The notes under the pieces are model-generated. The model did no database searches. It saw only the letters and a list, made by a program, of their open reading frames with translations, and was not told the DNA's origin. From sequence record OL362276.1: a stretch of DNA of 39,803 bases; one strand, given 5' to 3'. Source of the DNA: Escherichia phage HC13. A program made the translations under genes and the position numbers. Positions 1 through 8,504 of this stretch are shown in pieces (the first letter of the stretch is position 1; every line of letters begins with the position of its first letter).

Positions 1-175
1 TCTCACAGTTCAAGAACCTCAAGTCTCCCCATAGGCCCTCTTTCAGTCAGACTCAAGGCCCTACCCCAGTCTATCATAAGGTTGGACCGATGGTCAAGAC
101 GTCAGATCAACGATAGGTTTAGTCTATGGCTTAGGGAAGGACGATAGGTAGGGACTATGGGTCTTCTTTGAGTCT

Positions 176-184
176 CTATCTGTA
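176..184 (+). promoter_or_regulatory. Possible T7-type concatemer-junction pause/termination signal (ATCTGT)
   Basis: Sequence tctATCTGTa lies just upstream of the left-end short-repeat array, the same relative place as the ATCTGTT pause site near the end of the T7 terminal repeat (recollection). Single short motif only. Confidence 0.25.
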
Positions 185-315
185 TAACCATAAGTCACAA
201 CCATAGGTCACAGCCTACCTCTCACAACCATAAGTCATAACCTACAGTCTCACTAACCTACAGTCTCAACCATAAGACACCAACACCTACAGTCATAGAC
301 CTACAGTTAATAGAC
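185..315. repeat. Left-end array of short direct repeats (ACCATAAGTCA / ACCTACAGTC units)
   Basis: Read directly: about ten reiterations of CCATAAGTCA / CCTACAGTC-like units. Analogous to the short repeats that flank the terminal repeat in T7. Confidence 0.6.
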
Positions 316-420
316 ACAAGGCTATAGACTTAAGGTCTAAGACATGTTAGTCAAAGACTATATCCTCTTAGTCACTATGGGGCCGACGATAGCTTAATCA
401 ATATTATTTAAGATTACCTA

Positions 421-452
421 TTGACTACAGGTCCAGACTATGGCTTAATAGC
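421..452 (+). promoter_or_regulatory. Candidate minor host (sigma70) early promoter
   Basis: TTGACT at 421-426 followed about 18 nt later by a weak -10-like TTAATA. Position is homologous to T7 A1, but the -10 is poor. Confidence 0.25.
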
Positions 453-561
453 TTCCGTCAACACGACACGGCAACAACCGGATAGTGAAGACGCCGGGTC
501 ATCCCGGTTAAGTAGACAGCCTGATAAGTCATACGAACAACAGGCAGATGACAGAAAGTAG

Positions 562-598
562 TTGACAAGATGTACCGACTTAAAGTAGTATGTACCAC
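562..598 (+). promoter_or_regulatory. Strong host (sigma70) early promoter, T7 A2/A3-like
   Basis: TTGACA at 562-567, 18-nt spacer, TAGTAT at 586-591, then GTACCACAT. The flanks (CCGGTTAAGTAGACAGCCTGATAAGTC upstream) closely resemble the T7 A2/A3 promoter region as I recall it. Confidence 0.55.
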
Positions 599-708
599 AT
601 CAACACGAAACAACGACCGAAACGGTCTACCTGAAGTCCTCTGACTGAAGGGAATGCTCTTTAACAATCTGGATAAACTCTTAATGTGCGCCGATAGCGA
701 CTAACTAC

Positions 709-751
709 AGGGCCTTTGAGTCTACATCTGAAGGCCCTGACTGATAGTCAC
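709..751 (+). promoter_or_regulatory. Early-leader hairpin plus GACTGATAGTCA element (candidate RNase III site R0.3)
   Basis: AGGGCC (709-714) pairs with GGCCCT (733-738). It is followed by CTGACTGATAGTCAC, and the same GGCC..TGACTGATAGTCA element recurs at 1647-1671 before the next early gene. Confidence 0.35.
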
Positions 752-783
752 TAACACATAATTAACTTTGAGAGGATATAACT

Positions 784-1293
784 ATGGAACGTAATGCTAA
801 CGCATACTATGAGCTGCTGGCTGAAACCGTTGAGGTATTTATCGAGCGTATTCAGTACGACCACCTGACTCAAGATGACGACTACAGCACTGCGCTGCAT
901 GAGGTCGTAGACGGTCAGGTTCCACACTATTACCACGAGATTTTTACGGTGATGGCTGCTGATGGTATAGACAACGAGTTCGAAGACTCTGGGATGATAC
1001 CTGAAACCAAGGACGTAACGCGTATCCTACAAGCTCGCATCTATGAGGCACTTTATAACGACGTGTCTAATAGCTTGGATGTAGTCTGGTTTGAGGATGA
1101 AGAGGCAGACGAAGAGGATGAATATTGGGTAGTTGACGCTAAAACAGGCGCAATAATTGTGCAAGCTGTAGCTCTTGAGGTCGCTACTGCATGTGCCAAG
1201 GTTAACTATGAGGCAGGTCGCCACCTGAAGGTGGAAGACATCAATGATAACGTAGTGTTCGACCCTGCGTCTGCTGAGGAGGACTGCCAGTAA
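784..1293 (+). CDS. 0.3: Ocr-like DNA-mimic anti-restriction protein (gene 0.3) with an extra C-terminal extension
   Basis: 169 aa. Residues about 20-100 ([66 protein letters not shown]) align with T7 Ocr as recalled ([66 protein letters not shown]). SD GAGAGGA upstream. First gene after the early promoters. Confidence 0.85.
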   Translation: [169 protein letters not shown]

Positions 1294-1478
1294 TGAGCAA
1301 GATATACGCAATATACTATGTCGTGCCTAACTCATGGGGAGATGACCACATCCTGCAGGAGCCTTGTTATTATAACGAGGATGAGGCAAAACAGGCACTA
1401 GCGGAAGCCCAAGCGGAAGCCAAAGACCCTTGGTCTGGCGTGTATAAGGCCTACATGGAGGTTATACAAGTTGTCTAA
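1293..1478 (+). CDS. Hypothetical early protein (61 aa)
   Basis: ATG overlaps the Ocr stop (TAATGA). Same-strand early position; no recognisable motif. Confidence 0.5.
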   Translation: MSKIYAIYYVVPNSWGDDHILQEPCYYNEDEAKQALAEAQAEAKDPWSGVYKAYMEVIQVV

Positions 1479-1646
1479 AACTTATGGTCTCTGCCAGCAC
1501 CACGTCACCAACGCCCGGCTTATAGTCAAGACCGGGCGGTTAAACCACGATGCGACTATGCGTCACCTGAAAGCGGTCTACGAGGGCCGCAAGCGTATAC
1601 ACGACAGTTTACACGCTAAGTGACAGACTACAGGTCATCAATGCTG

Positions 1647-1671
1647 GTGGCCTGACTGATAGTCATTAACA
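1647..1671 (+). promoter_or_regulatory. Conserved early 5'-UTR element GGCCTGACTGATAGTCA (candidate RNase III site R0.5)
   Basis: Near-identical to the element at 735-751. Both sit about 35-45 nt upstream of an early start codon. Confidence 0.3.
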
Positions 1672-1686
1672 ACTGAGAGGGAAGAT

Positions 1687-1914
1687 ATGCACACAATCAC
1701 TGGTGCCATAACCAAAGGTTTTCGAGCGATTTTCGGTGAAACGCAAGAAGTATGCACCAATCATAAATTCGTACTTTCTTGCGTAGCAGGTGACGAGTTT
1801 GACGGGTTCGATAAACTGGTGGTTTGCGACCATTGCGGACAAGAGGCTATCCAACACTCAAACGGTAAATTTGAATTAATAGACGATAGCCTTACAGAAG
1901 GAGACGGCGAGTAA
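1687..1914 (+). CDS. Hypothetical early protein (75 aa) with Cys-x2-Cys and possible zinc ribbon
   Basis: SD GAGAGGGAAG upstream of ATG. Contains C..C and CDHC spacing suggestive of a small zinc-binding fold. Confidence 0.5.
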   Translation: MHTITGAITKGFRAIFGETQEVCTNHKFVLSCVAGDEFDGFDKLVVCDHCGQEAIQHSNGKFELIDDSLTEGDGE

Positions 1915-2046
1915 CCTAAATAAACAGGAGAGAACCAAATCATAGCTTGACCATAACACTGACGTGATGGTACTGAGTGATAGACGAGAGGTCATCGACT
2001 GATAGGTGGCCTCAAAGATTACCACTTACATTGATAGGAGTTAACT

Positions 2047-2151
2047 ATGAGCACTGCAATCATCTGGACTATCTCAGGCTTCGTAGCGTGGGGAATGTTT
2101 ACTCTAGTCTGCAAACTACCGGTCCTTACTCAACTGTTATGGGGCTTATGA
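2047..2151 (+). CDS. Small hydrophobic peptide (34 aa)
   Basis: My own translation: MSTAIIWTISGFVAWGMFTLVCKLPVLTQLLWGL. AGGAG six nt upstream of ATG. Too short for the ORF track. Single predicted TM helix. Confidence 0.4.
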   Translation: MSTAIIWTISGFVAWGMFTLVCKLPVLTQLLWGL

Positions 2152-2351
2152 CTATGAGTATCGCACTATTGATAGCCATAGGCTATGGACTTATCGCCTA
2201 CGTGCTGGTGAGAGACATCAACAAAGCGCGTAAAGTCTACAAATTCAACTATGTACGTCTGGGTAGCTGGACTGTACGTCAACCTAACGGACGATTCATG
2301 CGTAACTTAGCGAACGTCTGGGATATAGCAACACTTGGGAGCAAACTGTAA
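2148..2351 (+). CDS. Hypothetical small membrane protein (67 aa)
   Basis: In frame with track ORF 1977..2351, but I start it at the ATG overlapping the upstream stop (ATGA). Hydrophobic N-terminus SIALLIAIGYGLIAYVLV. Start uncertain. Confidence 0.4.
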   Translation: MTMSIALLIAIGYGLIAYVLVRDINKARKVYKFNYVRLGSWTVRQPNGRFMRNLANVWDIATLGSKL

Positions 2352-2677
2352 TGAACAAGTCATACGGGATTAATCTGGTACACTCTATGGACGCAGACAT
2401 GCAAATGTTAAGCCTACTGGCTACCGGGTATCGTCACGGGACGTCAAGTCACTCCGCACGTCAACAGCAGGAGCGGGACCGGGTACTGCAAGCAAGACTC
2501 CGGGCTGAGGGCCATAAGTCCGAACTAATGTGTCTGGCGTATGGTGGACGACCAATCACTGACGATGGTAAACTTTTAGTCTCAGGCTGGAAGGCGATAG
2601 ACCAGCGGTCAACCATCAAGCACACGACTCATGGTGACTTCAGTCATCTCCACGCTAACCCGCTGATATGCAAGTAA
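2351..2677 (+). CDS. Hypothetical early protein (108 aa), occupies the slot of T7 gene 0.7
   Basis: ATG overlaps the previous stop. No kinase motifs. Last ORF before the RNAP gene. Confidence 0.5.
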   Translation: MNKSYGINLVHSMDADMQMLSLLATGYRHGTSSHSARQQQERDRVLQARLRAEGHKSELMCLAYGGRPITDDGKLLVSGWKAIDQRSTIKHTTHGDFSHLHANPLICK

Positions 2678-2682
2678 TTCTG

Positions 2683-2706
2683 ACTTAACTATCACTATAG
2701 GACTCA
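2683..2706 (+). promoter_or_regulatory. Phage RNAP promoter (TTAACTATCACTATAGG, +1 about 2700) upstream of gene 1
   Basis: Matches the 11-copy promoter family in this window. Architecture is that of T7 promoters (..CACTATAG G..). Confidence 0.7.
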
Positions 2707-2774
2707 AGGTCTAAGACTCCAAGTGAAAGACCAAAGAGACTTTAAGTGAAAGACTAATAACAAGGACTTTAAGT

Positions 2775-5456
2775 ATGAGCGTCATCTCTATTGACAAGCA
2801 CGACTTCTCTGATGTGTCGAACGCCATTGAGCCGTTTAACCTACTGGCTGACCACTACGGGCAAGACCTTGCAGTCAAACAGCTTCAGCTTGAGCACGAG
2901 GCATACACTGAAGGCGAGCGACGTTTCATCAAGAACCTTGAGAGACAGACTGAGCGAGGGGAACTGGCAGACAATCAGGTCGCCAAGCCTTTGATGCAGA
3001 CTCTGGTCCCTAAGATTGCGCAAGCCGTCAAGGAGTGGCATGAAGGTCCAGACGGGAAGCTGTCAACCTCTCGTCCTAGCGTAGCGTTCACCGTGTTGAG
3101 CACTGAAGAGAAGGCCGTCAAGGACCGCTCTATGCGCATCTCCTGTGAGTCCGCTGCGGTTATCATACTGAAGGTCATACTCTCCAAGCTGGTCAAGCCT
3201 GAAGGGATACCGATTACACCGATGGCCTCCGCGATAGGTCGCACACTTGAGGACGAAATCCGCTTCGGTCGCATCCGTGACAAAGAGAAAGAGCACTTCA
3301 AGAAGGCGATAGCTGATAACCTGAATAAGCGGGCCGGGGCGTCATACAAGAAAGCCTACATGCAAGCGGTCGAGGCGTCCATGCTGGAGCAAGGCCAACT
3401 GGAAGATGCGTGGGGGACTTGGAGTCCTACAGAGGCTGTCCACGTTGGCATCAAGATGCTCGAGATTGTCATCCAGTCAACACAACTGGTCGAGCTTAAG
3501 CGGTATGGTGCTGGTAATGCAGCGGCTGACGTAGAGATGGTCCACCTGTCAGACTTCTGGGTCAAGAAGATGGCACAACGAGGATTCAGCCTTGCGGGTA
3601 TAGCTCCAGTCTACCAGCCTTGCGTCGTTCCACCTAAGCCGTGGACTGGTGTCGTAGGCGGTGGGTACTGGGCCAAAGGACGCAGACCATTACCACTGAT
3701 TCGCTTAGGGTCTAAGTCTGCGGTAGCACGCTACGAAGACGTGTATATGCCTGAAGTCTATGACGCTGTGAACATCATTCAGAATACACCTTGGAAAGTG
3801 AACAAGAAGGTTCTGGAAGTGGTGAACATGGTCGAGAAGCTGAACAACACGCCTATTGATGACATCCCTCAGATGGAACCGCTGAAGCCTGAGGACTATG
3901 CGGGTGAGACTGAAGAAGAACTCAAGGCATGGAAGAAGGCTGCTGCTGGTATCTATCGCCGCGAGAAGGCCAGACAGTCACGAAGATTGTCACTGAGCTT
4001 TATCGTCAACCAAGCGAACAAGTTCTCTCAGTTCAAGGCCATCTGGTTCCCGTATAACATGGACTGGCGCGGTCGCGTCTACGCTGTGCCGATGTTCAAC
4101 CCTCAGGGTAACGACATGCAAAAGGGTCTTCTGACTCTGGCAGTCGGTAAGCCTATTGGTGCTGATGGTTTCAAATGGCTGAAGGTCCACGGTGCAAACT
4201 GCGCGGGTGTCGATAAAGTCACCTTCGAGGAGCGTATCAAGTGGGTGGAAGATAACCACGACAACATCATGGCTGCTGCCAATGCACCGATGGATAGCAT
4301 TGAGTGGTGGGGCAAGTTAGACTCTCCGTTCTGCTTCCTAGCGTTCTGCTTCGAGTATGCTGGCGTAATGCACCACGGCTTGTCTTACTCCTGCTCGCTG
4401 CCGATAGCGTTCGATGGGTCCTGCTCTGGGATTCAGCACTTCAGCGCTATGCTTCGCGACCACATCGGTGGACATGCAGTAAACCTGACGCCATCCGGTA
4501 AGGTCCAAGACATCTACCGCATCGTGTCTGACCGCATTGAGGAGGAGCTTAAAGTCCTACTGGTTAACGGTACGGACAACGAGATGGTAACTCACGAGGA
4601 CAAGAAAACTGGTGAGATTACCGAGCGTCTCAAGCTGGGGACACGAGAGCTTGCCCGTCAGTGGCTGACCTACGGTATGTCACGAAAGGTCACTAAGCGT
4701 TCGGTCATGACTCTGGCCTACGGGTCGAAAGAGTACGGCTTCGCAGACCAAGTTTACGAGGACATCGTGATGCCAGCGATTGACTCAGGGTCTGGCGCTA
4801 TGTTCACTGAACCAAGCCAAGCATCTCGCTTCATGGCTAAGATGATTTGGGAAGCTGTGAGTGTGACCGTAGTTGCTGCGGTTGACGCGATGAAATGGCT
4901 TCAGGGTGCTGCCAAGCTGCTTGCTGCTGAAGTGAAGGACAAGAAGACTGGAGAAATCCTGAAGCCTTGTCTTCCGGTACACTGGGTCACACCTGATGGT
5001 TTCCCTGTCTGGCAGGAATACCGCAAGAAGGACACCACTCGTCTGAACCTGATGTTCTTAGGGTCATTCAACCTTCAGCCTACCGTCAACAAAGGCACGA
5101 AGAAAGAGCTGGACAAGCACAAGCAGGAGTCAGGCATTAGCCCGAACTTCGTCCACTCACAAGATGGTAGCCACCTGCGGAAGACTGTAGTCCACACTCA
5201 CCGCAAGTATGGCGTGATGTCATTCGCAGTGATTCACGATAGCTTCGGGACCATCCCTGCTGACGCTGAGTATCTGTTCCGTGGTGTCCGTGAGACGATG
5301 GTCGAGACATACCGCGATAACGATGTGCTGCTTGACTTCTACGAGCAGTTTGAATACCAGCTTCATGAAAGCCAGCGCGACAAGTTGCCTGAGCTTCCGA
5401 AGAAAGGTAAACTGAATATCGAAGACATCTTGTCTTCAGACTTTGCATTCGCTTAA
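2775..5456 (+). CDS. 1: Single-subunit DNA-directed RNA polymerase (T7 gene 1 homologue)
   Basis: 893 aa, aligns end to end with T7 RNAP as recalled (ANQFKAIWFPYNMDWRGRVYA, HGANCAGVDK, DGSCSGIQHFSAM, KRSVMTLAYGS, NFVHSQDGSHLR, IHDSFGT, C-terminal SDFAFA). Confidence 0.97.
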   Translation: MSVISIDKHDFSDVSNAIEPFNLLADHYGQDLAVKQLQLEHEAYTEGERRFIKNLERQTERGELADNQVAKPLMQTLVPKIAQAVKEWHEGPDGKLSTSRPSVAFTVLSTEEKAVKDRSMRISCESAAVIILKVILSKLVKPEGIPITPMASAIGRTLEDEIRFGRIRDKEKEHFKKAIADNLNKRAGASYKKAYMQAVEASMLEQGQLEDAWGTWSPTEAVHVGIKMLEIVIQSTQLVELKRYGAGNAAADVEMVHLSDFWVKKMAQRGFSLAGIAPVYQPCVVPPKPWTGVVGGGYWAKGRRPLPLIRLGSKSAVARYEDVYMPEVYDAVNIIQNTPWKVNKKVLEVVNMVEKLNNTPIDDIPQMEPLKPEDYAGETEEELKAWKKAAAGIYRREKARQSRRLSLSFIVNQANKFSQFKAIWFPYNMDWRGRVYAVPMFNPQGNDMQKGLLTLAVGKPIGADGFKWLKVHGANCAGVDKVTFEERIKWVEDNHDNIMAAANAPMDSIEWWGKLDSPFCFLAFCFEYAGVMHHGLSYSCSLPIAFDGSCSGIQHFSAMLRDHIGGHAVNLTPSGKVQDIYRIVSDRIEEELKVLLVNGTDNEMVTHEDKKTGEITERLKLGTRELARQWLTYGMSRKVTKRSVMTLAYGSKEYGFADQVYEDIVMPAIDSGSGAMFTEPSQASRFMAKMIWEAVSVTVVAAVDAMKWLQGAAKLLAAEVKDKKTGEILKPCLPVHWVTPDGFPVWQEYRKKDTTRLNLMFLGSFNLQPTVNKGTKKELDKHKQESGISPNFVHSQDGSHLRKTVVHTHRKYGVMSFAVIHDSFGTIPADAEYLFRGVRETMVETYRDNDVLLDFYEQFEYQLHESQRDKLPELPKKGKLNIEDILSSDFAFA

Positions 5457-5471
5457 CAGGAGGAGAAGTAT

Positions 5472-5702
5472 ATGTCAATGAAACTTGTAGCACACAACAG
5501 AGTATTCAACGATGGGTCGGGACGTTGCCATGTAGAGCTGACTTATAAGGATTTAATCATTCTCCGAGACAGATTACAGTCGGGTGTGACTGGGTGGATT
5601 CAACCTAACGAGTACAACCTTATAGCTTCGATTGATGAAGTTCTTAACGCGTGGATGGAAGACGAGCGAATTCAGTATCCGTCATTCCCTCTAATTAGAT
5701 AA
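5472..5702 (+). CDS. Hypothetical protein (76 aa)
   Basis: Strong SD AGGAGGAG upstream. Sits between gene 1 and 1.1; no recognisable motif. Confidence 0.5.
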   Translation: MSMKLVAHNRVFNDGSGRCHVELTYKDLIILRDRLQSGVTGWIQPNEYNLIASIDEVLNAWMEDERIQYPSFPLIR

Positions 5703-5712
5703 GGAGAGAGTT

Positions 5713-5928
5713 ATGAAATTTGCACACAAGCATACTGGCGTTAATGGTGGGACTCAAATCGTGACCGTAACAGAACACAACGGCAAGGGTATGGTGAAGA
5801 CCACGGTCATACCTACCGAGATGTCCAAGCAGCTTAACATCCCGTTCAAGACTCTTGTATATCTGGTCGAGTCCAGCCACGAGAAGTACCTGAAGGACGC
5901 AGTGTCCAAGCTGGAGCAGGCCAAATGA
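5713..5928 (+). CDS. Hypothetical protein (71 aa)
   Basis: SD AAGGAGAG upstream of ATG. No recognisable motif. Confidence 0.5.
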   Translation: MKFAHKHTGVNGGTQIVTVTEHNGKGMVKTTVIPTEMSKQLNIPFKTLVYLVESSHEKYLKDAVSKLEQAK

Positions 5929-6002
5929 CAGACATACAGTTACTGGCCCTGTGGCTGGGAGCACTCGCAGTATTCACTTTAATCCAACGCAGAAGAGGTT
6001 AA
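5925..6002 (+). CDS. Small hydrophobic peptide (25 aa)
   Basis: My own translation: MTDIQLLALWLGALAVFTLIQRRRG. ATG overlaps the upstream stop (ATGA). Very short, speculative. Confidence 0.25.
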   Translation: MTDIQLLALWLGALAVFTLIQRRRG

Positions 6003-6003
6003 C

Positions 6004-6027
6004 CCTAAACTATCACTATAGGATTAG
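6004..6027 (+). promoter_or_regulatory. Phage RNAP promoter (TAAACTATCACTATAGG, +1 about 6021)
   Basis: Promoter-family match. Position equals T7 phi1.1. Confidence 0.75.
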
Positions 6028-6070
6028 ACTCAAGGTCATGACTCAAAGTCGTGGCCTTCATGATTAACCC
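6022..6070 (+). promoter_or_regulatory. Putative RNase III processing hairpin (R1.1-like)
   Basis: Conserved UAGACUCAAGGUCAU ... GUGGCCUUCAUGAUUAA. Upper stem AAGGUCAU pairs with GUGGCCUU; internal loop and lower stem as in the hairpins at 13150 and 36801. Confidence 0.45.
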
Positions 6071-6099
6071 TAAATAAACACTACTGGAGATTTAACCGT

Positions 6100-6279
6100 A
6101 TGTATCAGAACACTATCAACTTCGAGCGCATCCGTGAACGTCAGCAGACTGAAGGTTACATCCCTAAGGGCCGCAAGCTGAACAAGACTAAACGTGGCGG
6201 TGGCATCAAAGGTGCTTTCCGTAATGCTGAAGGTAAAGACTCTCTGGTCAACCAAGAGAAATACTTCGTAGGAGCATAA
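6100..6279 (+). CDS. 1.1: Gene 1.1-like small basic protein (59 aa)
   Basis: My own translation contains KGRKLNKTKR, matching T7 gp1.1 as recalled. Below the ORF-track size cutoff. Confidence 0.6.
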   Translation: MYQNTINFERIRERQQTEGYIPKGRKLNKTKRGGGIKGAFRNAEGKDSLVNQEKYFVGA

Positions 6280-6283
6280 CCAA

Positions 6284-6547
6284 ATGGGCCGACTTTATAG
6301 TGGCAACCTCAACGCTTTCAAATCAGCGTGCAACAGGCTCTATCAGTTAGACTTAGCTGTTATATCTCAGGAGTTTCAAGACCATGTGTCAAGCCAAGAG
6401 TGCATGAAACTCAGGGTGGAGGACCGAGCCGGTAACATCTTCGCGCTTGAGACCTTCGCACACTACGATGAAGACGTGCTGTATAATACCGCAACCGACT
6501 ACCTCAACGGTCTCGCTGACCATCTCGACACATGGAGCAAAGAATAA
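6284..6547 (+). CDS. 1.2: gp1.2, inhibitor of host dGTP triphosphohydrolase
   Basis: MGRLYSGNLNAFKSA...LDLAVI...RVEDRAGN...HYDEDVLYN aligns with T7 gp1.2 (MGRLYSGNLAAFKAA...). Confidence 0.85.
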   Translation: MGRLYSGNLNAFKSACNRLYQLDLAVISQEFQDHVSSQECMKLRVEDRAGNIFALETFAHYDEDVLYNTATDYLNGLADHLDTWSKE

Positions 6548-7593
6548 TGACAACTATCAAAACTAACCCTCACCGCGCTGTAGATTACTCTGAGTCTGGA
6601 ATTAAGAAGGCACTGGAAGCAGCCGGGTCTCTGGAAGCTGAAGTGAAGTACGATGGTGTGCGCCTGAACCTCCTGGTCCTGCGTGAAGGTGAGACCTACT
6701 GGCTTAGCCGCGAGTCGAAACCTCTACCAGCCTTGGAGTGGATGAACTCTGAGTTAGGTAATGCGTGGACCCAAGCTGACTGGCGATGGTTCCTGCGTCA
6801 ATCCGGCTACGAAGGTGTGGGCATGATGATTGATGGCGAGGTCATGGTCAAAGGTGTAGACTTCAACACCTCCTCAGGTCTCATCCGAACGAAGTGGCTC
6901 AAGCCTAACAACGAGGAGTTCGCTGAATACTATTCGCCGGCGACTGGTGGAAAGAAGCTCCCGTTCTGGGGATCCCGGTCACGACTTCAGGTTGTGGTCT
7001 ACGGTGTCATCGACATGACAACCATTGCTGACCCGAAAGCCGAAGGTCCTATCCATAGCGTCACACGCCTGAAGGCCGAAGCTATCGTCCCTCTCCTCCA
7101 GAAATACTTCCCGGAAATCGACTGGGCTCTGTCTGAGTCACACACGGTCTATGACCTTGAGTCGCTCAACTCCCTGTACGAACAGAAGCGTCTGGAAGGA
7201 CACGAGGGTCTGGTAGTCAAGGACCCACTGGGTAAATATAAGCGTGGCAAGAAGTCAGGCATGTGGAAGATGAAGCCTGAGGAGACCATCGACGGGACCG
7301 TGTGTGGTCTCGTGTGGGGGACTCATGGTAAGGCTAACGAGGGCAAGGTCATCGGCTTCGAGGTTCTGCTTGAGGATGGCATGGTGGTTAACGCCTGTGG
7401 TCTGACTGAAGAACAGAAGGCTGAGTTTACGGAAGCCTGTAACACTGATACATATATTCTCGGTGGAATCAATCCATACGAAGGCTGGCAGTGTGAAGTG
7501 CTATTCATGGAGCGGTTCCCTGATGGCTCTCTTCGTCACCCTAGCTTCAAGTGCTGGCGTGGAACGGAAGACAATCCAACCGTTAAGAGCTAA
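6547..7593 (+). CDS. 1.3: ATP-dependent DNA ligase (gene 1.3)
   Basis: Aligns with T7 ligase: catalytic Lys motif EVKYDGVR, EGHEGLVVKDP, KSGMWKMKPE, C-terminal SLRHPSF. I prefer the ATG at 6547 (MTTIKTNP..., matching T7 MMNIKTNP); the track ORF begins at 6532. Confidence 0.93.
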   Translation: MTTIKTNPHRAVDYSESGIKKALEAAGSLEAEVKYDGVRLNLLVLREGETYWLSRESKPLPALEWMNSELGNAWTQADWRWFLRQSGYEGVGMMIDGEVMVKGVDFNTSSGLIRTKWLKPNNEEFAEYYSPATGGKKLPFWGSRSRLQVVVYGVIDMTTIADPKAEGPIHSVTRLKAEAIVPLLQKYFPEIDWALSESHTVYDLESLNSLYEQKRLEGHEGLVVKDPLGKYKRGKKSGMWKMKPEETIDGTVCGLVWGTHGKANEGKVIGFEVLLEDGMVVNACGLTEEQKAEFTEACNTDTYILGGINPYEGWQCEVLFMERFPDGSLRHPSFKCWRGTEDNPTVKS

Positions 7594-7603
7594 CTAAATG
7601 TCA

Positions 7604-7645
7604 ACCCAGTGGTCTTCGCGGACTGCTGGGTTTCTTTGCTTTGTG
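7604..7645 (+). terminator. Early (host RNAP) intrinsic terminator TE
   Basis: ACCCAGUGGUC / GGACUGCUGGGU hairpin (about 11 bp with two G-U pairs) followed by UUUCUUUGCUUUG. Same position as T7 TE, immediately after ligase. Confidence 0.6.
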
Positions 7646-7678
7646 CTAGCAAGCTATCGTCTGGGCCACCAGTTAGAC

Positions 7679-7702
7679 CCTAAGCTATCACTATAGGACA
7701 AC
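7679..7702 (+). promoter_or_regulatory. Phage RNAP promoter (TAAGCTATCACTATAGG, +1 about 7696)
   Basis: Promoter-family match, one mismatch in the upstream part. Confidence 0.7.
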
Positions 7703-7725
7703 CATCAACAACCAAAGGAGACTCT

Positions 7726-7986
7726 ATGTCTAAGAACTTAATGTTCAACCGTTATACCGATACCTTCCACCTGTCTAACAACCCGTTCGCTTGCATTAAG
7801 CGCAACGAGAAGCTGGGATACTTCGGGAAGGCCGTTAAGCTGTCACCTACAGTCTATGCTCTGATTACTCACGGCAAAGCTGAAGAGGCTCGCCAGAAGC
7901 GTGAGACCGACGTACCTGTGGTATACACCAAGTGGCCTCGCGTTCGTCTGTTTATTGAGTTCGTGAAGGAGGTGATCAATGGTTAA
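7726..7986 (+). CDS. Hypothetical protein, positional equivalent of T7 gene 1.6
   Basis: 86 aa, good SD (AAAGGAG). Assignment is by position only. Confidence 0.5.
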   Translation: MSKNLMFNRYTDTFHLSNNPFACIKRNEKLGYFGKAVKLSPTVYALITHGKAEEARQKRETDVPVVYTKWPRVRLFIEFVKEVING

Positions 7987-8422
7987 GGTGGGGGATACAG
8001 TTAACTATGTTGGACCAGTTGGAGCGCACGCGGGACGCTCCTGTGGCAAGGTGATATTGGTCAAGAATGAGCATGTAGCTGTTGTTAAGTGGCCCCGTTT
8101 ATCTGAACCACTCACTCACTCCATTAGTTCCTTAAGTATTACCAAGCAGGCGCAGTCCGAGCCGACAACCATAGGTCAGGAAGATAGCGTCCGTAAGCCA
8201 TCTCACTATCAGGTCTTTGACGGCGTGGAGTCCATTGAGATTATCGCTCGGTCCATGACTGTCAGTGAGTTCCGTGGCTTCTGCATGGGTAACGTCCTTA
8301 AGTATCGACTCCGGGCTGGTAAGAAGTCAGAGCTGGCGACTATGGAGAAGGACCTGAACAAAGCAGCCTTCTATCAGGAGCTGTTCGACCTACATAAAGG
8401 TAAGTGCTATGCTTCCGAGTGA
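7979..8422 (+). CDS. 1.7: gp1.7-like protein (T7 nucleotide kinase homologue, divergent N-terminus)
   Basis: C-terminal 75 aa (KPSHYQVFDGVESIEIIARSMTVSEFRGFCMGNVLKYRLRAGKKSELATMEKDLNKAAFYQELF) aligns with the T7 gp1.7 C-terminus as recalled. The N-terminal half is shorter and unrelated. Confidence 0.7.
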   Translation: MVKVGDTVNYVGPVGAHAGRSCGKVILVKNEHVAVVKWPRLSEPLTHSISSLSITKQAQSEPTTIGQEDSVRKPSHYQVFDGVESIEIIARSMTVSEFRGFCMGNVLKYRLRAGKKSELATMEKDLNKAAFYQELFDLHKGKCYASE

Positions 8423-8504
8423 GTGGTGCGAGCGTAAACTTGAGGAGACAGGTAACGTCGATTACCTTCAGCTCTACAACTTATGGAAGGAGCGTGGTCT
8501 ATGA
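8409..8504 (+). CDS. Small ORF (31 aa), positional gene 1.8
   Basis: My own translation: [31 protein letters not shown]. Overlaps neighbours at both ends. By position only. Confidence 0.3.

Follow-up and report, generated by a model that had tools for sequence, protein, structure and literature searches.

Which genes does Escherichia phage HC13 carry between the anti-restriction gene ocr and the RNA polymerase gene (gene 1), and do they stand in for the 0.7 protein kinase that T7 has there? A first-pass annotation of the stretch of HC13 DNA studied here (OL362276.1; 39,803 nucleotides (nt), hereafter the window) had found no kinase in this interval but five small open reading frames (ORFs) of 61, 75, 34, 67 and 108 amino acids (aa), called o61, o75, o34, o67 and o108 below, and had put them forward as the best candidates in the window for undescribed inhibitors of host or defence proteins. 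All five ORFs are present, but a sixth gene, o50 (positions 1471-1623), had been overlooked. We consider it rather likely that the interval is a non-essential early (class I) accessory region of the kind found in Kayfunavirus phages of the K1F/LM33_P1 type, and that its o50 product acts on FtsZ. Gene anatomy, homologies, distributions and residue correspondences were read directly from the sequences; the functions proposed for the gene products are predictions.

Profile comparisons place o50 in the gp0.4 family

The o50 gene starts with TTG, with GGAGGT located 8 nt upstream, and its first 8 nt lie within the end of o61. The counterpart in close relatives has an ATG start that directly overlaps the stop codon of ocr; in HC13 the 186-base-pair o61 gene is inserted between ocr and o50, which accounts for the TTG start. 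The same o61/TTG junction is present in phages phiHAO1-1 and ZCEC02, and the gp0.4-like gene downstream of it (L012 1148-1339 and L013 879-1031) is unannotated in both GenBank records, likely because of its start codon.

Profile searches connect o50 with T7 gp0.4. The match of o50 to phrog_5058 (E 3.8e-26) was listed as the strongest family match of the interval bar that of o75, and o50 also matches the T7 gp0.4 family phrog_7202 (E 2.3e-4). T7 gp0.4 matches phrog_7202 with E 4.6e-33 and, in return, phrog_5058 with E 9e-5. Alignment of 27 K1F-type with 24 T7-type sequences by hhalign yielded a probability of 91.4% (E 9.1e-7) over 41 columns with 34% identity. A search of 5.8 billion proteins recovered 50 homologues of o50 and 43 of T7 gp0.4 in non-overlapping sets, all of which carry the precomputed Pfam accession PF26807.1, an entry known here by accession alone; a literature search found no paper mentioning PF26807. 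In a joint alignment of both subtypes, including divergent copies from Klebsiella and Kosakonia phages, the sequences are collinear end to end, and Y5, G6, L7, M30, K34, Y37 and K41 are invariant in both. When T7 gp0.4 was used as a tblastn query, its best match in the whole window was o50.

Gene order points in the same direction. The gene directly follows ocr in K1F, vB_EcoP-101118UKE1 (UKE1) and EPr2, as 0.4 follows 0.3 in T7, and the K1F homologue, located directly 3' of ocr, is YP_338091 ('Gp0.35'). The CR8 order 0.3-0.31-0.4 mirrors ocr-o61-o50, with CR8 0.31 being the o61 homologue and CR8 0.4 a T7-type gp0.4. Like T7 gp0.4, o50 is a protein of about 50 aa whose gene lies just downstream of ocr, within one unit bounded by RNase III-type sites, and it keeps the YGL motif and the M, L, K, Y, E and K positions. 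Its gene is thus found where the family is expected, downstream of gene 0.3 and before the R0.5 site. It differs from T7 gp0.4 in belonging to a separate subfamily (PHROG 5058 as opposed to PHROG 7202), in its TTG start and in the presence of o61 between ocr and the gene. Based on these comparisons o50 is a gp0.4-family protein and a distant relative of T7 gp0.4.

The first-pass annotation had held that confident homology to the T7 0.4, 0.5, 0.6 or 0.7 proteins would speak against its proposal. No such similarity was detected for the five ORFs that it listed, but o50 is related to gp0.4. Of the analyses that it had recommended, remote-homology comparison linked o50 to gp0.4 through profiles; structure prediction and fold searches were uninformative for o108 and o75.

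When o50 was compared with the K1F copy (1471-1623 versus L004 1623-1772), 4 synonymous and 11 nonsynonymous codon differences were counted, which are small numbers. The comparison suggests that the o50 family evolves fast, and possibly diversifies, outside the conserved residues of the FtsZ face described below.

A predicted inhibitor of FtsZ

According to the summary given in PMC9372555, T7 gp0.4 is a ligand of FtsZ that prevents assembly of the Z ring (Kiro et al. 2013). In a 2026 study (PMC13423816), toxicity of T7 gp0.4 was lost upon the replacements V15A, V22A, W28A/W28L, M32A, L35A/L35P and Y39A, with W28L and W28A also losing FtsZ binding. By contrast, changes at A12, T14, L16, S19 and R23 left FtsZ inhibition intact and abolished activation of the defence protein CapRel-Ebc, a sensor of the complex between T7 gp0.4 and FtsZ (PMC13423816). 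The fold of T7 gp0.4, two antiparallel alpha-helices, is known from prediction only (PMC13423816).

The two faces of the protein are conserved to a different extent in HC13. T7 residues V15, V22, W28, M32, L35 and Y39 correspond to V12, V19, H26, M30, L33 and Y37 of o50, five of the six being identical, and these five are conserved across the 27 K1F-type sequences. None of the five CapRel-face residues is identical, their counterparts in o50 being Q9, H11, T13, R16 and K20. With 14 of 41 columns identical overall, the hypergeometric probability of at least five matches among the six FtsZ-face positions is P = 0.013, and the comparison of 5/6 with 0/5 gives a Fisher P = 0.013; both values derive from small counts in one 41-column hhalign alignment.

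K1F, which infects E. coli K1 and is relevant to therapy (PMC9372555), mislocalises FtsZ during infection and causes the same multi-ring filaments as T7 (Dhanoa et al. 2022, PMC9372555). The same authors stated that K1F lacks 0.4 genes and that the responsible peptide is not known and probably novel (PMC9372555); our literature search found no later paper naming the K1F FtsZ factor. A 2016 modelling paper and the 2026 paper (PMC13423816) considered only T7-type homologues. The family link to gp0.4, the residue mapping, the FtsZ phenotype of K1F and the position of Gp0.35 after ocr in K1F together point to o50 as a His-type gp0.4 that inhibits FtsZ. This predicted function is the best-supported mechanism for the interval and one that we regard as probable, and o50/Gp0.35 is the best candidate for the FtsZ inhibitor of K1F.

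We propose that o50 would bind the synergy-loop face of FtsZ through a hydrophobic face formed by V12, V19, M30, L33 and Y37 plus the invariant H26. Binding would block Z-ring assembly and lead to filamentation, and a protein of the o50 type would be the factor behind FtsZ mislocalisation by K1F. Given that the other face of o50 differs at all five CapRel-Ebc positions, the protein may not trigger CapRel-Ebc.

Absence of the kinase is a trait of the lineage

Neither T7 gp0.7 (best E 1.9) nor the 243-aa kinase of CR8 (best E 0.16) detected a kinase in tblastn searches of the whole 39.8-kb window, and no ORF of the interval has a Pfam or PHROG kinase match. These searches uphold the earlier statement that the 0.7 kinase is missing and that the small ORFs contain no kinase motifs. 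K1F and LM33_P1 likewise have no kinase, which for K1F rests on the annotated record plus an ORF list made in this analysis. Absence of the kinase is therefore a trait common to this lineage and not a peculiarity of HC13.

A short-form kinase of 243 aa is encoded by CR8, SFPH2, Enterobacter phage B1 (for a gene map with the kinase, see PMC12785254) and many more phages in or near the genus. In CR8, B1 and SFPH2 its gene lies between the gp0.4-like region and a block consisting of a short hydrophobic ORF and homologues of o67 and o108. Since homologues of o34, o67 and o108 stand alongside the kinase in these phages, they are not kinase replacements, and the idea that the small ORFs are present 'instead' of the kinase has to be abandoned for them. 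Only o75 occupies the kinase slot, as deduced from the gene maps of CR8, B1 and SFPH2. The 0.7 kinase would thus be a variable cassette of the genus, absent from the HC13 lineage, which has o75 in the slot.

The GenBank record of 'Escherichia phage JSS1' (KX689784, L014) is a Kayfunavirus without a kinase gene. A full-length gp0.7-like kinase is encoded by the phage that the JSS1_004 kinase papers call JSS1, apparently a different phage of the same name; these papers were not used as evidence on this genus.

o75, a cysteine-rich protein shared with siphophages

The o75 protein matches phrog_32657 (E 1.9e-52) and, at 50% identity, corresponds to just one cluster in a set of 1.84 billion representative proteins. 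Family counts here and below refer to a collection of 50,697 phage records, of which 56 contain o75. They include LM33_P1-type Kayfunavirus and Kagunavirus siphophages, and identity to the Kagunavirus copies (XY1, Bas70, K1ind1) amounts to approximately 90-92% at the amino acid level. Exchange of o75 is between podophages and siphophages of capsulated or extraintestinal E. coli. In Kagunavirus, the homologue opens an operon that runs divergently from the gene of a DicA-like regulator.

Nucleotide similarity to XY1 reaches upstream into the ribosome-binding site of o75 (window positions 1600-1990 versus L006 2380-2790). It also continues for about 25 nt past the o75 stop codon and takes in the Shine-Dalgarno sequence of the gene that comes next in Kagunavirus; the start codon of that gene, ATG, is ATC in HC13. 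This vestige of the next siphophage gene suggests transfer from siphophage to podophage, and o75 was apparently acquired from Kagunavirus-like siphophages. The o75 unit including its hairpin is missing from phage EPr2, and joint deletion of gene and hairpin fits a cassette.

Cysteines C23, C32, C47 and C50 are invariant in six homologues from two phage families. The CxxC zinc-ribbon-like pattern reported for one of the ORFs in the first-pass annotation is indeed present in o75, and two more cysteines accompany it. The small, acidic protein is probably zinc-binding. Its single-sequence AlphaFold model had a predicted local distance difference test score (pLDDT) of 48, and with Foldseek nothing below E = 1 was found in the PDB. 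Profile searches of PDB sequences with o75 and o108 returned no informative match.

A relationship to LysW, to which the automatic name of one cluster member had led, was rejected, as the hhalign probability was 24% over 17 columns that cover the second knuckle only. No HMMER match of o75 to a LysW model was found (NCBIfam, Pfam, PDB sequences). The zinc ribbon of the amino-group carrier protein LysW (PDB 3wwl, 5k2m, 3vpb) and o75 have in common the second zinc-knuckle motif LVVC[D/E]xCG and an acidic C-terminal tail ending in Gly-Glu. They differ in the first knuckle, which is C-x8-C in o75 and not CPxC, and in the tail (EGDGE, with no EDWGE motif); furthermore, the phage context of o75 is unrelated to lysine biosynthesis.

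ocr and o61

The ocr product is a DNA-mimic anti-restriction protein with a C-terminal extension. The Pfam ocr domain spans just residues 7-95 of the 169-aa HC13 protein, and the extension of about 70 aa is missing from the Ocr proteins of T7 (117 aa) and phiHAO1-1 (111 aa). Several GenBank records, among them IME177 (387-890) and one LM33_P1 record (LT594300), wrongly name Kayfunavirus ocr 'protein kinase', which could mislead surveys of kinase presence in the genus.

The insertion of o61 behind ocr, ahead of the gp0.4-like gene, is rare and is not found in LM33_P1-like relatives. By tblastn o61 was detected in 5 of the 50,697 records and is common to HC13 and four other distinct phages, with 56-87% identity to the copies of CR8, phiHAO1-1 and ZCEC02. 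At 56% identity it is an intact ORF in another genus, Caroctavirus, with 26 invariant positions. GAGGAGG is located upstream of o61, and its start overlaps the ocr stop codon as TAATG. No family match was obtained in Pfam, PHROG or NCBIfam, and synonymous to nonsynonymous differences of 9:9 and 1:8 reveal no synonymous excess.

The o34-o67-o108 block

The last three genes have counterparts in CR8: o34 is 47% identical to 0.705 (pairwise E 4e-10), o67 82% to 0.71 and o108 45% to 0.38. The maximal Kyte-Doolittle hydropathy over 19 residues is 1.82 for o34 and 2.35 for o67 (residues 3-21). One strongly hydrophobic segment of this length in each of the two is in agreement with the single-transmembrane peptides that had been noted earlier.

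No PHROG match was found for o34, and none to the T7 gp0.5 family. Unrelated short hydrophobic ORFs take its place in K1F, EPr2 and B1, such an ORF being always present there. o67 matches phrog_2385 (E 9.7e-32) and consists of an N-terminal transmembrane helix and a basic tail (isoelectric point (pI) 10.7). The name '0.6' of its K1F counterpart is positional only, as there is no similarity to T7 gp0.6A. In UKE1 (L001 1879-1998) an extra A in an A-run causes a frameshift that shortens the o67 homologue to 39 aa, implying that o67 is dispensable, at least for laboratory propagation.

o108 matches phrog_7066 (E 6.1e-46). Its 143 homologues, mostly from contigs of about 40 kb, contain no Pfam domain in any case, and the core (residues 27-108), including H91, H99, H101 and C107, is highly conserved. 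An AlphaFold2 model based on a 29-sequence alignment reached a pLDDT of 60 and a predicted template modelling score of 0.41; Foldseek retrieved only the protein's own family, including 'Gp0.38', from BFVD and nothing below E = 1 from the PDB. The short form of the Kayfunavirus kinase and a weak BLASTP match at the domain boundary had given rise to the idea that o108 is the detached shut-off domain of gp0.7 (residues 230-359). This idea was discarded: the hhalign probability was 0.2%, none of 29 family members matches phrog_2828, and the BLASTP match to gp0.7 (E 0.16) involves a charged helix only.

BLASTP of o34 and o67 against T7 gp0.5 and gp0.6A produced no alignment, and nothing significant was found for o108 against gp0.7. 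T7 gp0.5 and gp0.6 belong to PHROG families 16572 and 8393, respectively, as opposed to none for o34 and 2385 for o67. What the o34-o67-o108 block shares with T7 0.5, 0.6 and 0.7 is its position between an R0.5-type RNase III site and gene 1. Similarly, o34 and T7 gp0.5 are both very short hydrophobic peptides encoded directly after an R0.5-type site, with no sequence similarity. We propose that o34-o67-o108 are a conserved, translationally coupled trio that would comprise two small membrane proteins and a soluble basic protein and would be independent of the kinase.

The interval as a Kayfunavirus early region

Closest to positions 700-2800 of HC13 are phages of the LM33_P1 type of Kayfunavirus, with approximately 98% nucleotide identity over about 90% of the query, and 233 records of the collection match this region (megablast). 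Record counts for the remaining ORFs are 35 for o34, 214 for o67 and 221 for o108. Exact-sequence look-up identified three proteins of the interval as GenBank HC13_0003, HC13_0004 and HC13_0005. In all close relatives the gene 1 product is labelled DNA-directed RNA polymerase.

Each of the five originally listed ORFs has a Shine-Dalgarno sequence or a stop/start overlap (TAATG for ocr/o61, ATGA for o34/o67, TAATG for o67/o108). Synonymous exceed nonsynonymous codon differences in o75 (20:6 versus XY1) and o108 (12:1 versus EPr2). These ribosome-binding signals and overlaps, the conservation as ORFs and the synonymous excess argue that they are real genes and not chance ORFs. Pfam and NCBIfam scans of all ORFs of the interval found no family for the small ORFs. 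Their earlier portrayal as undescribed unknowns is correct in that no function has been assigned to them, but PHROG families or genes that already bear a name account for four of the five (CR8 0.31, 0.705 and 0.71; EcoDS1 Gp0.38; K1F '0.6'). The small ORFs are thus already catalogued families, and the interval is an ordinary, well-populated Kayfunavirus early region, mostly of known kind.

HC13 has the same backbone as K1F, LM33_P1, EcoDS1, CR8, SFPH2 and B1: ocr, a gp0.4-like gene, a variable slot and a small hydrophobic ORF, followed by the o67 family, the o108 family, a phage promoter and gene 1. Relative to HC13, K1F has one 55-aa membrane ORF in place of o75 and o34, and its o108 is shortened at the N-terminus. 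SFPH2 and B1 encode an S-adenosylmethionine hydrolase in place of Ocr, and LM33_P1-like relatives are without o61.

Predicted early transcription and RNA processing

That the region is the early left end of a T7-like genome, as assumed in the first-pass annotation, is borne out by a sigma-70-like promoter (Table 1) and a strong terminator-like hairpin at 7603-7632. Three hairpins are, by alignment, homologous to T7 RNase III sites, and cleavage at them is predicted. Blocks common to them and T7 R0.3, R0.5 and R1 are GAGTGATAGACT...AGGTC...GGTGGCCT...TGAT..TCACT, and the hairpin before o34 is nearly invariant in EPr2 and UKE1. An Rfam scan of positions 1-8500 found no relevant family. The hairpins delimit the units ocr-o61-o50, o75 and o34-o67-o108, the first corresponding to the T7 0.3-0.4 message and the last to the T7 0.5-0.7 message.

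By analogy with T7, host RNA polymerase would transcribe the interval from left-end promoters during genome entry, and RNase III would cut the early transcript at the three hairpins. Within the units, genes would be coupled by overlapping stop and start codons.

The window contains a phage RNA polymerase promoter core, AACTATCACTATAGG(A/G), 11 times, always on the + strand, as compared with 0.2 expected by chance. Besides the one before gene 1, the copies are located at 6008, 7683, 8659, 11204, 17667, 20506, 21491, 26277, 33947 and 39210. In T7, by contrast, there is no phage promoter directly upstream of the RNA polymerase gene. A promoter at this place would let the phage polymerase boost its own expression.

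The first 50-250 nt of the window (1-250) are not repeated at its right end, so that the expected T7-like direct terminal repeat is not represented twice in the sequence. Short ACCTACAGTC-type repeats are present at the left end at about 200-310.

Table 1. Genes and predicted regulatory elements of the HC13 early region (positions in the window)
Feature	Position	Strand	Description
Sigma-70-like early promoter (predicted)	562-591	+	TTGACA, 18-nt spacer, TAGTAT; 10/12 consensus matches; T7 A-promoter position
RNase III-type hairpin, pre-ocr (R0.3 equivalent; cleavage predicted)	695-753	+	-25.6 kcal/mol, z = -3.56; aligns with T7 R0.3, R0.5, R1
ocr (gene 0.3)	784-1293	+	169 aa; Pfam PF08684 E 1.5e-28 over residues 7-95; phrog_2568 E 4.6e-51
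o61	1293-1478	+	61 aa, acidic, pI 4.3; CR8 gene 0.31 homologue
o50	1471-1623	+	50 aa, basic, pI 10.4, TTG start; gp0.4 family by profile comparison, K1F 'Gp0.35' type; GenBank HC13_0004
RNase III-type hairpin, pre-o75 (cleavage predicted)	1626-1664	+	-18.9 kcal/mol, z = -1.54; CTGACTGATAGTCA shared with pre-ocr site; aligns with T7 sites
o75	1687-1914	+	75 aa, acidic, pI 4.6; four invariant cysteines, acidic tail
RNase III-type hairpin, pre-o34 (R0.5 equivalent; cleavage predicted)	1974-2028	+	Fold of 1940-2046 -27.7 kcal/mol, z = -1.99; CTGAGTGATAGAC shared with T7 R0.5
o34	2047-2151	+	34-aa hydrophobic peptide; homologue of CR8 gene 0.705, CR44b gene 0.41
o67	2148-2351	+	67 aa, or 65 aa from ATG at 2154; K1F '0.6', CR8 0.71
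o108	2351-2677	+	108 aa, basic, histidine-rich; EcoDS1 'Gp0.38', CR8 0.38
Phage RNA polymerase promoter core AACTATCACTATAGGA (predicted)	2687-2702	+	Directly upstream of gene 1; CR8 record predicts promoter at same place
Gene 1, single-subunit RNA polymerase	2775-5456	+	893 aa; right boundary of interval

Discussion

Several observations weigh against an early accessory region whose o50 product acts on FtsZ. Sigma-70-like sites are no more frequent in the region than in shuffled sequence, which makes position the main argument for the promoter at 562-591, and the z-scores of two of the three hairpins are modest (-1.5, -2.0). Pairwise BLASTP detects no similarity between o50 and T7 gp0.4; this would also explain why the literature treats K1F as devoid of the gene. 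The residue-mapping statistics draw on one alignment and the shared Pfam entry on a bare accession. Finally, T7 W28 is replaced by His26, which is invariant in 27 of 27 K1F-type sequences, and the charge of the protein is reversed (pI 10.4 versus 4.7 for T7 gp0.4). The loss of a tryptophan that is essential in T7, the opposite net charge and the fast evolution of the gene would all be expected if o50 were a gp0.4 relative with a changed target, the division block in K1F being due to another early protein such as o34 or o67; indeed, Kil-like small membrane peptides are known division inhibitors (background in PMC9372555). Such a change of target is nevertheless unlikely in our view, because five of the six FtsZ-face residues are retained throughout the K1F-type sequences, T7 and K1F-type phages meet the same FtsZ in E. 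coli, and the multi-ring filaments of K1F are those of T7. FtsZ remains the target that we favour for o50.

Another explanation is that the small ORFs functionally replace the kinase and include at least one undescribed inhibitor, directed at a defence system or at some host protein apart from FtsZ. The genes belong to an early, accessory region, and a broad role in counter-defence is now ascribed to the T7 kinase (bioRxiv 10.1101/2024.12.20.629319); a phage without a counter-defence kinase may need other counter-defences. Moreover, o75 is located exactly in the kinase slot, is under purifying selection, moves between unrelated E. coli phage families and heads the Kagunavirus operon opposite the DicA-like regulator, and conservation of o67 and o108, both without assigned function, extends to more than 210 genomes. 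However, none of the small ORFs resembles any characterised protein, the positional argument is indirect, and CR8, B1 and SFPH2 have a kinase alongside their counterparts of o34, o67 and o108. Replacement of the kinase is hence a tentative possibility that we do not favour. Conversely, some of the ORFs, notably o61 and o34, might be annotation noise or decaying remnants, as could be suspected from the lack of a family match, the five records and the missing synonymous excess of o61, and from the short length of o34 (34 aa), its lack of a PHROG match and its substitution by unrelated ORFs in K1F, EPr2 and B1. We regard this as quite improbable: o61 is intact at 56% identity in Caroctavirus, is preceded by a strong Shine-Dalgarno sequence and is coupled to ocr, and o34 has kept its hydrophobicity at 47% identity to CR8 0.705, its stop codon overlaps the o67 start, and a short hydrophobic ORF is always found at its position. 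Thus, the interval is best viewed as a genuine set of early accessory genes, among which o50 is predicted to inhibit FtsZ.

For the Kayfunavirus genus, loss of the kinase with apparent 'replacement' would represent cassette variation. Profile comparisons indicate that K1F-type phages have a divergent gp0.4. Possibly, though we say so with reserve, at least one of o75, o67 and o108 is a new host-takeover or counter-defence protein and, separately, the His-type gp0.4 may inhibit FtsZ and escape CapRel-Ebc. Among these three proteins, o75 is the strongest takeover or counter-defence candidate, and o75 and the o67-o108 pair are well-conserved proteins worth experimental priority. With Gp0.35/o50 (HC13_0004), the question of the FtsZ inhibitor of K1F now has a concrete and cheaply testable candidate. 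Residue conservation predicts its FtsZ-binding face and a possible evasion of CapRel-Ebc by the subfamily. If this is true, the His-type gp0.4 would keep the face that binds its target and change the face that is recognised by host immunity.

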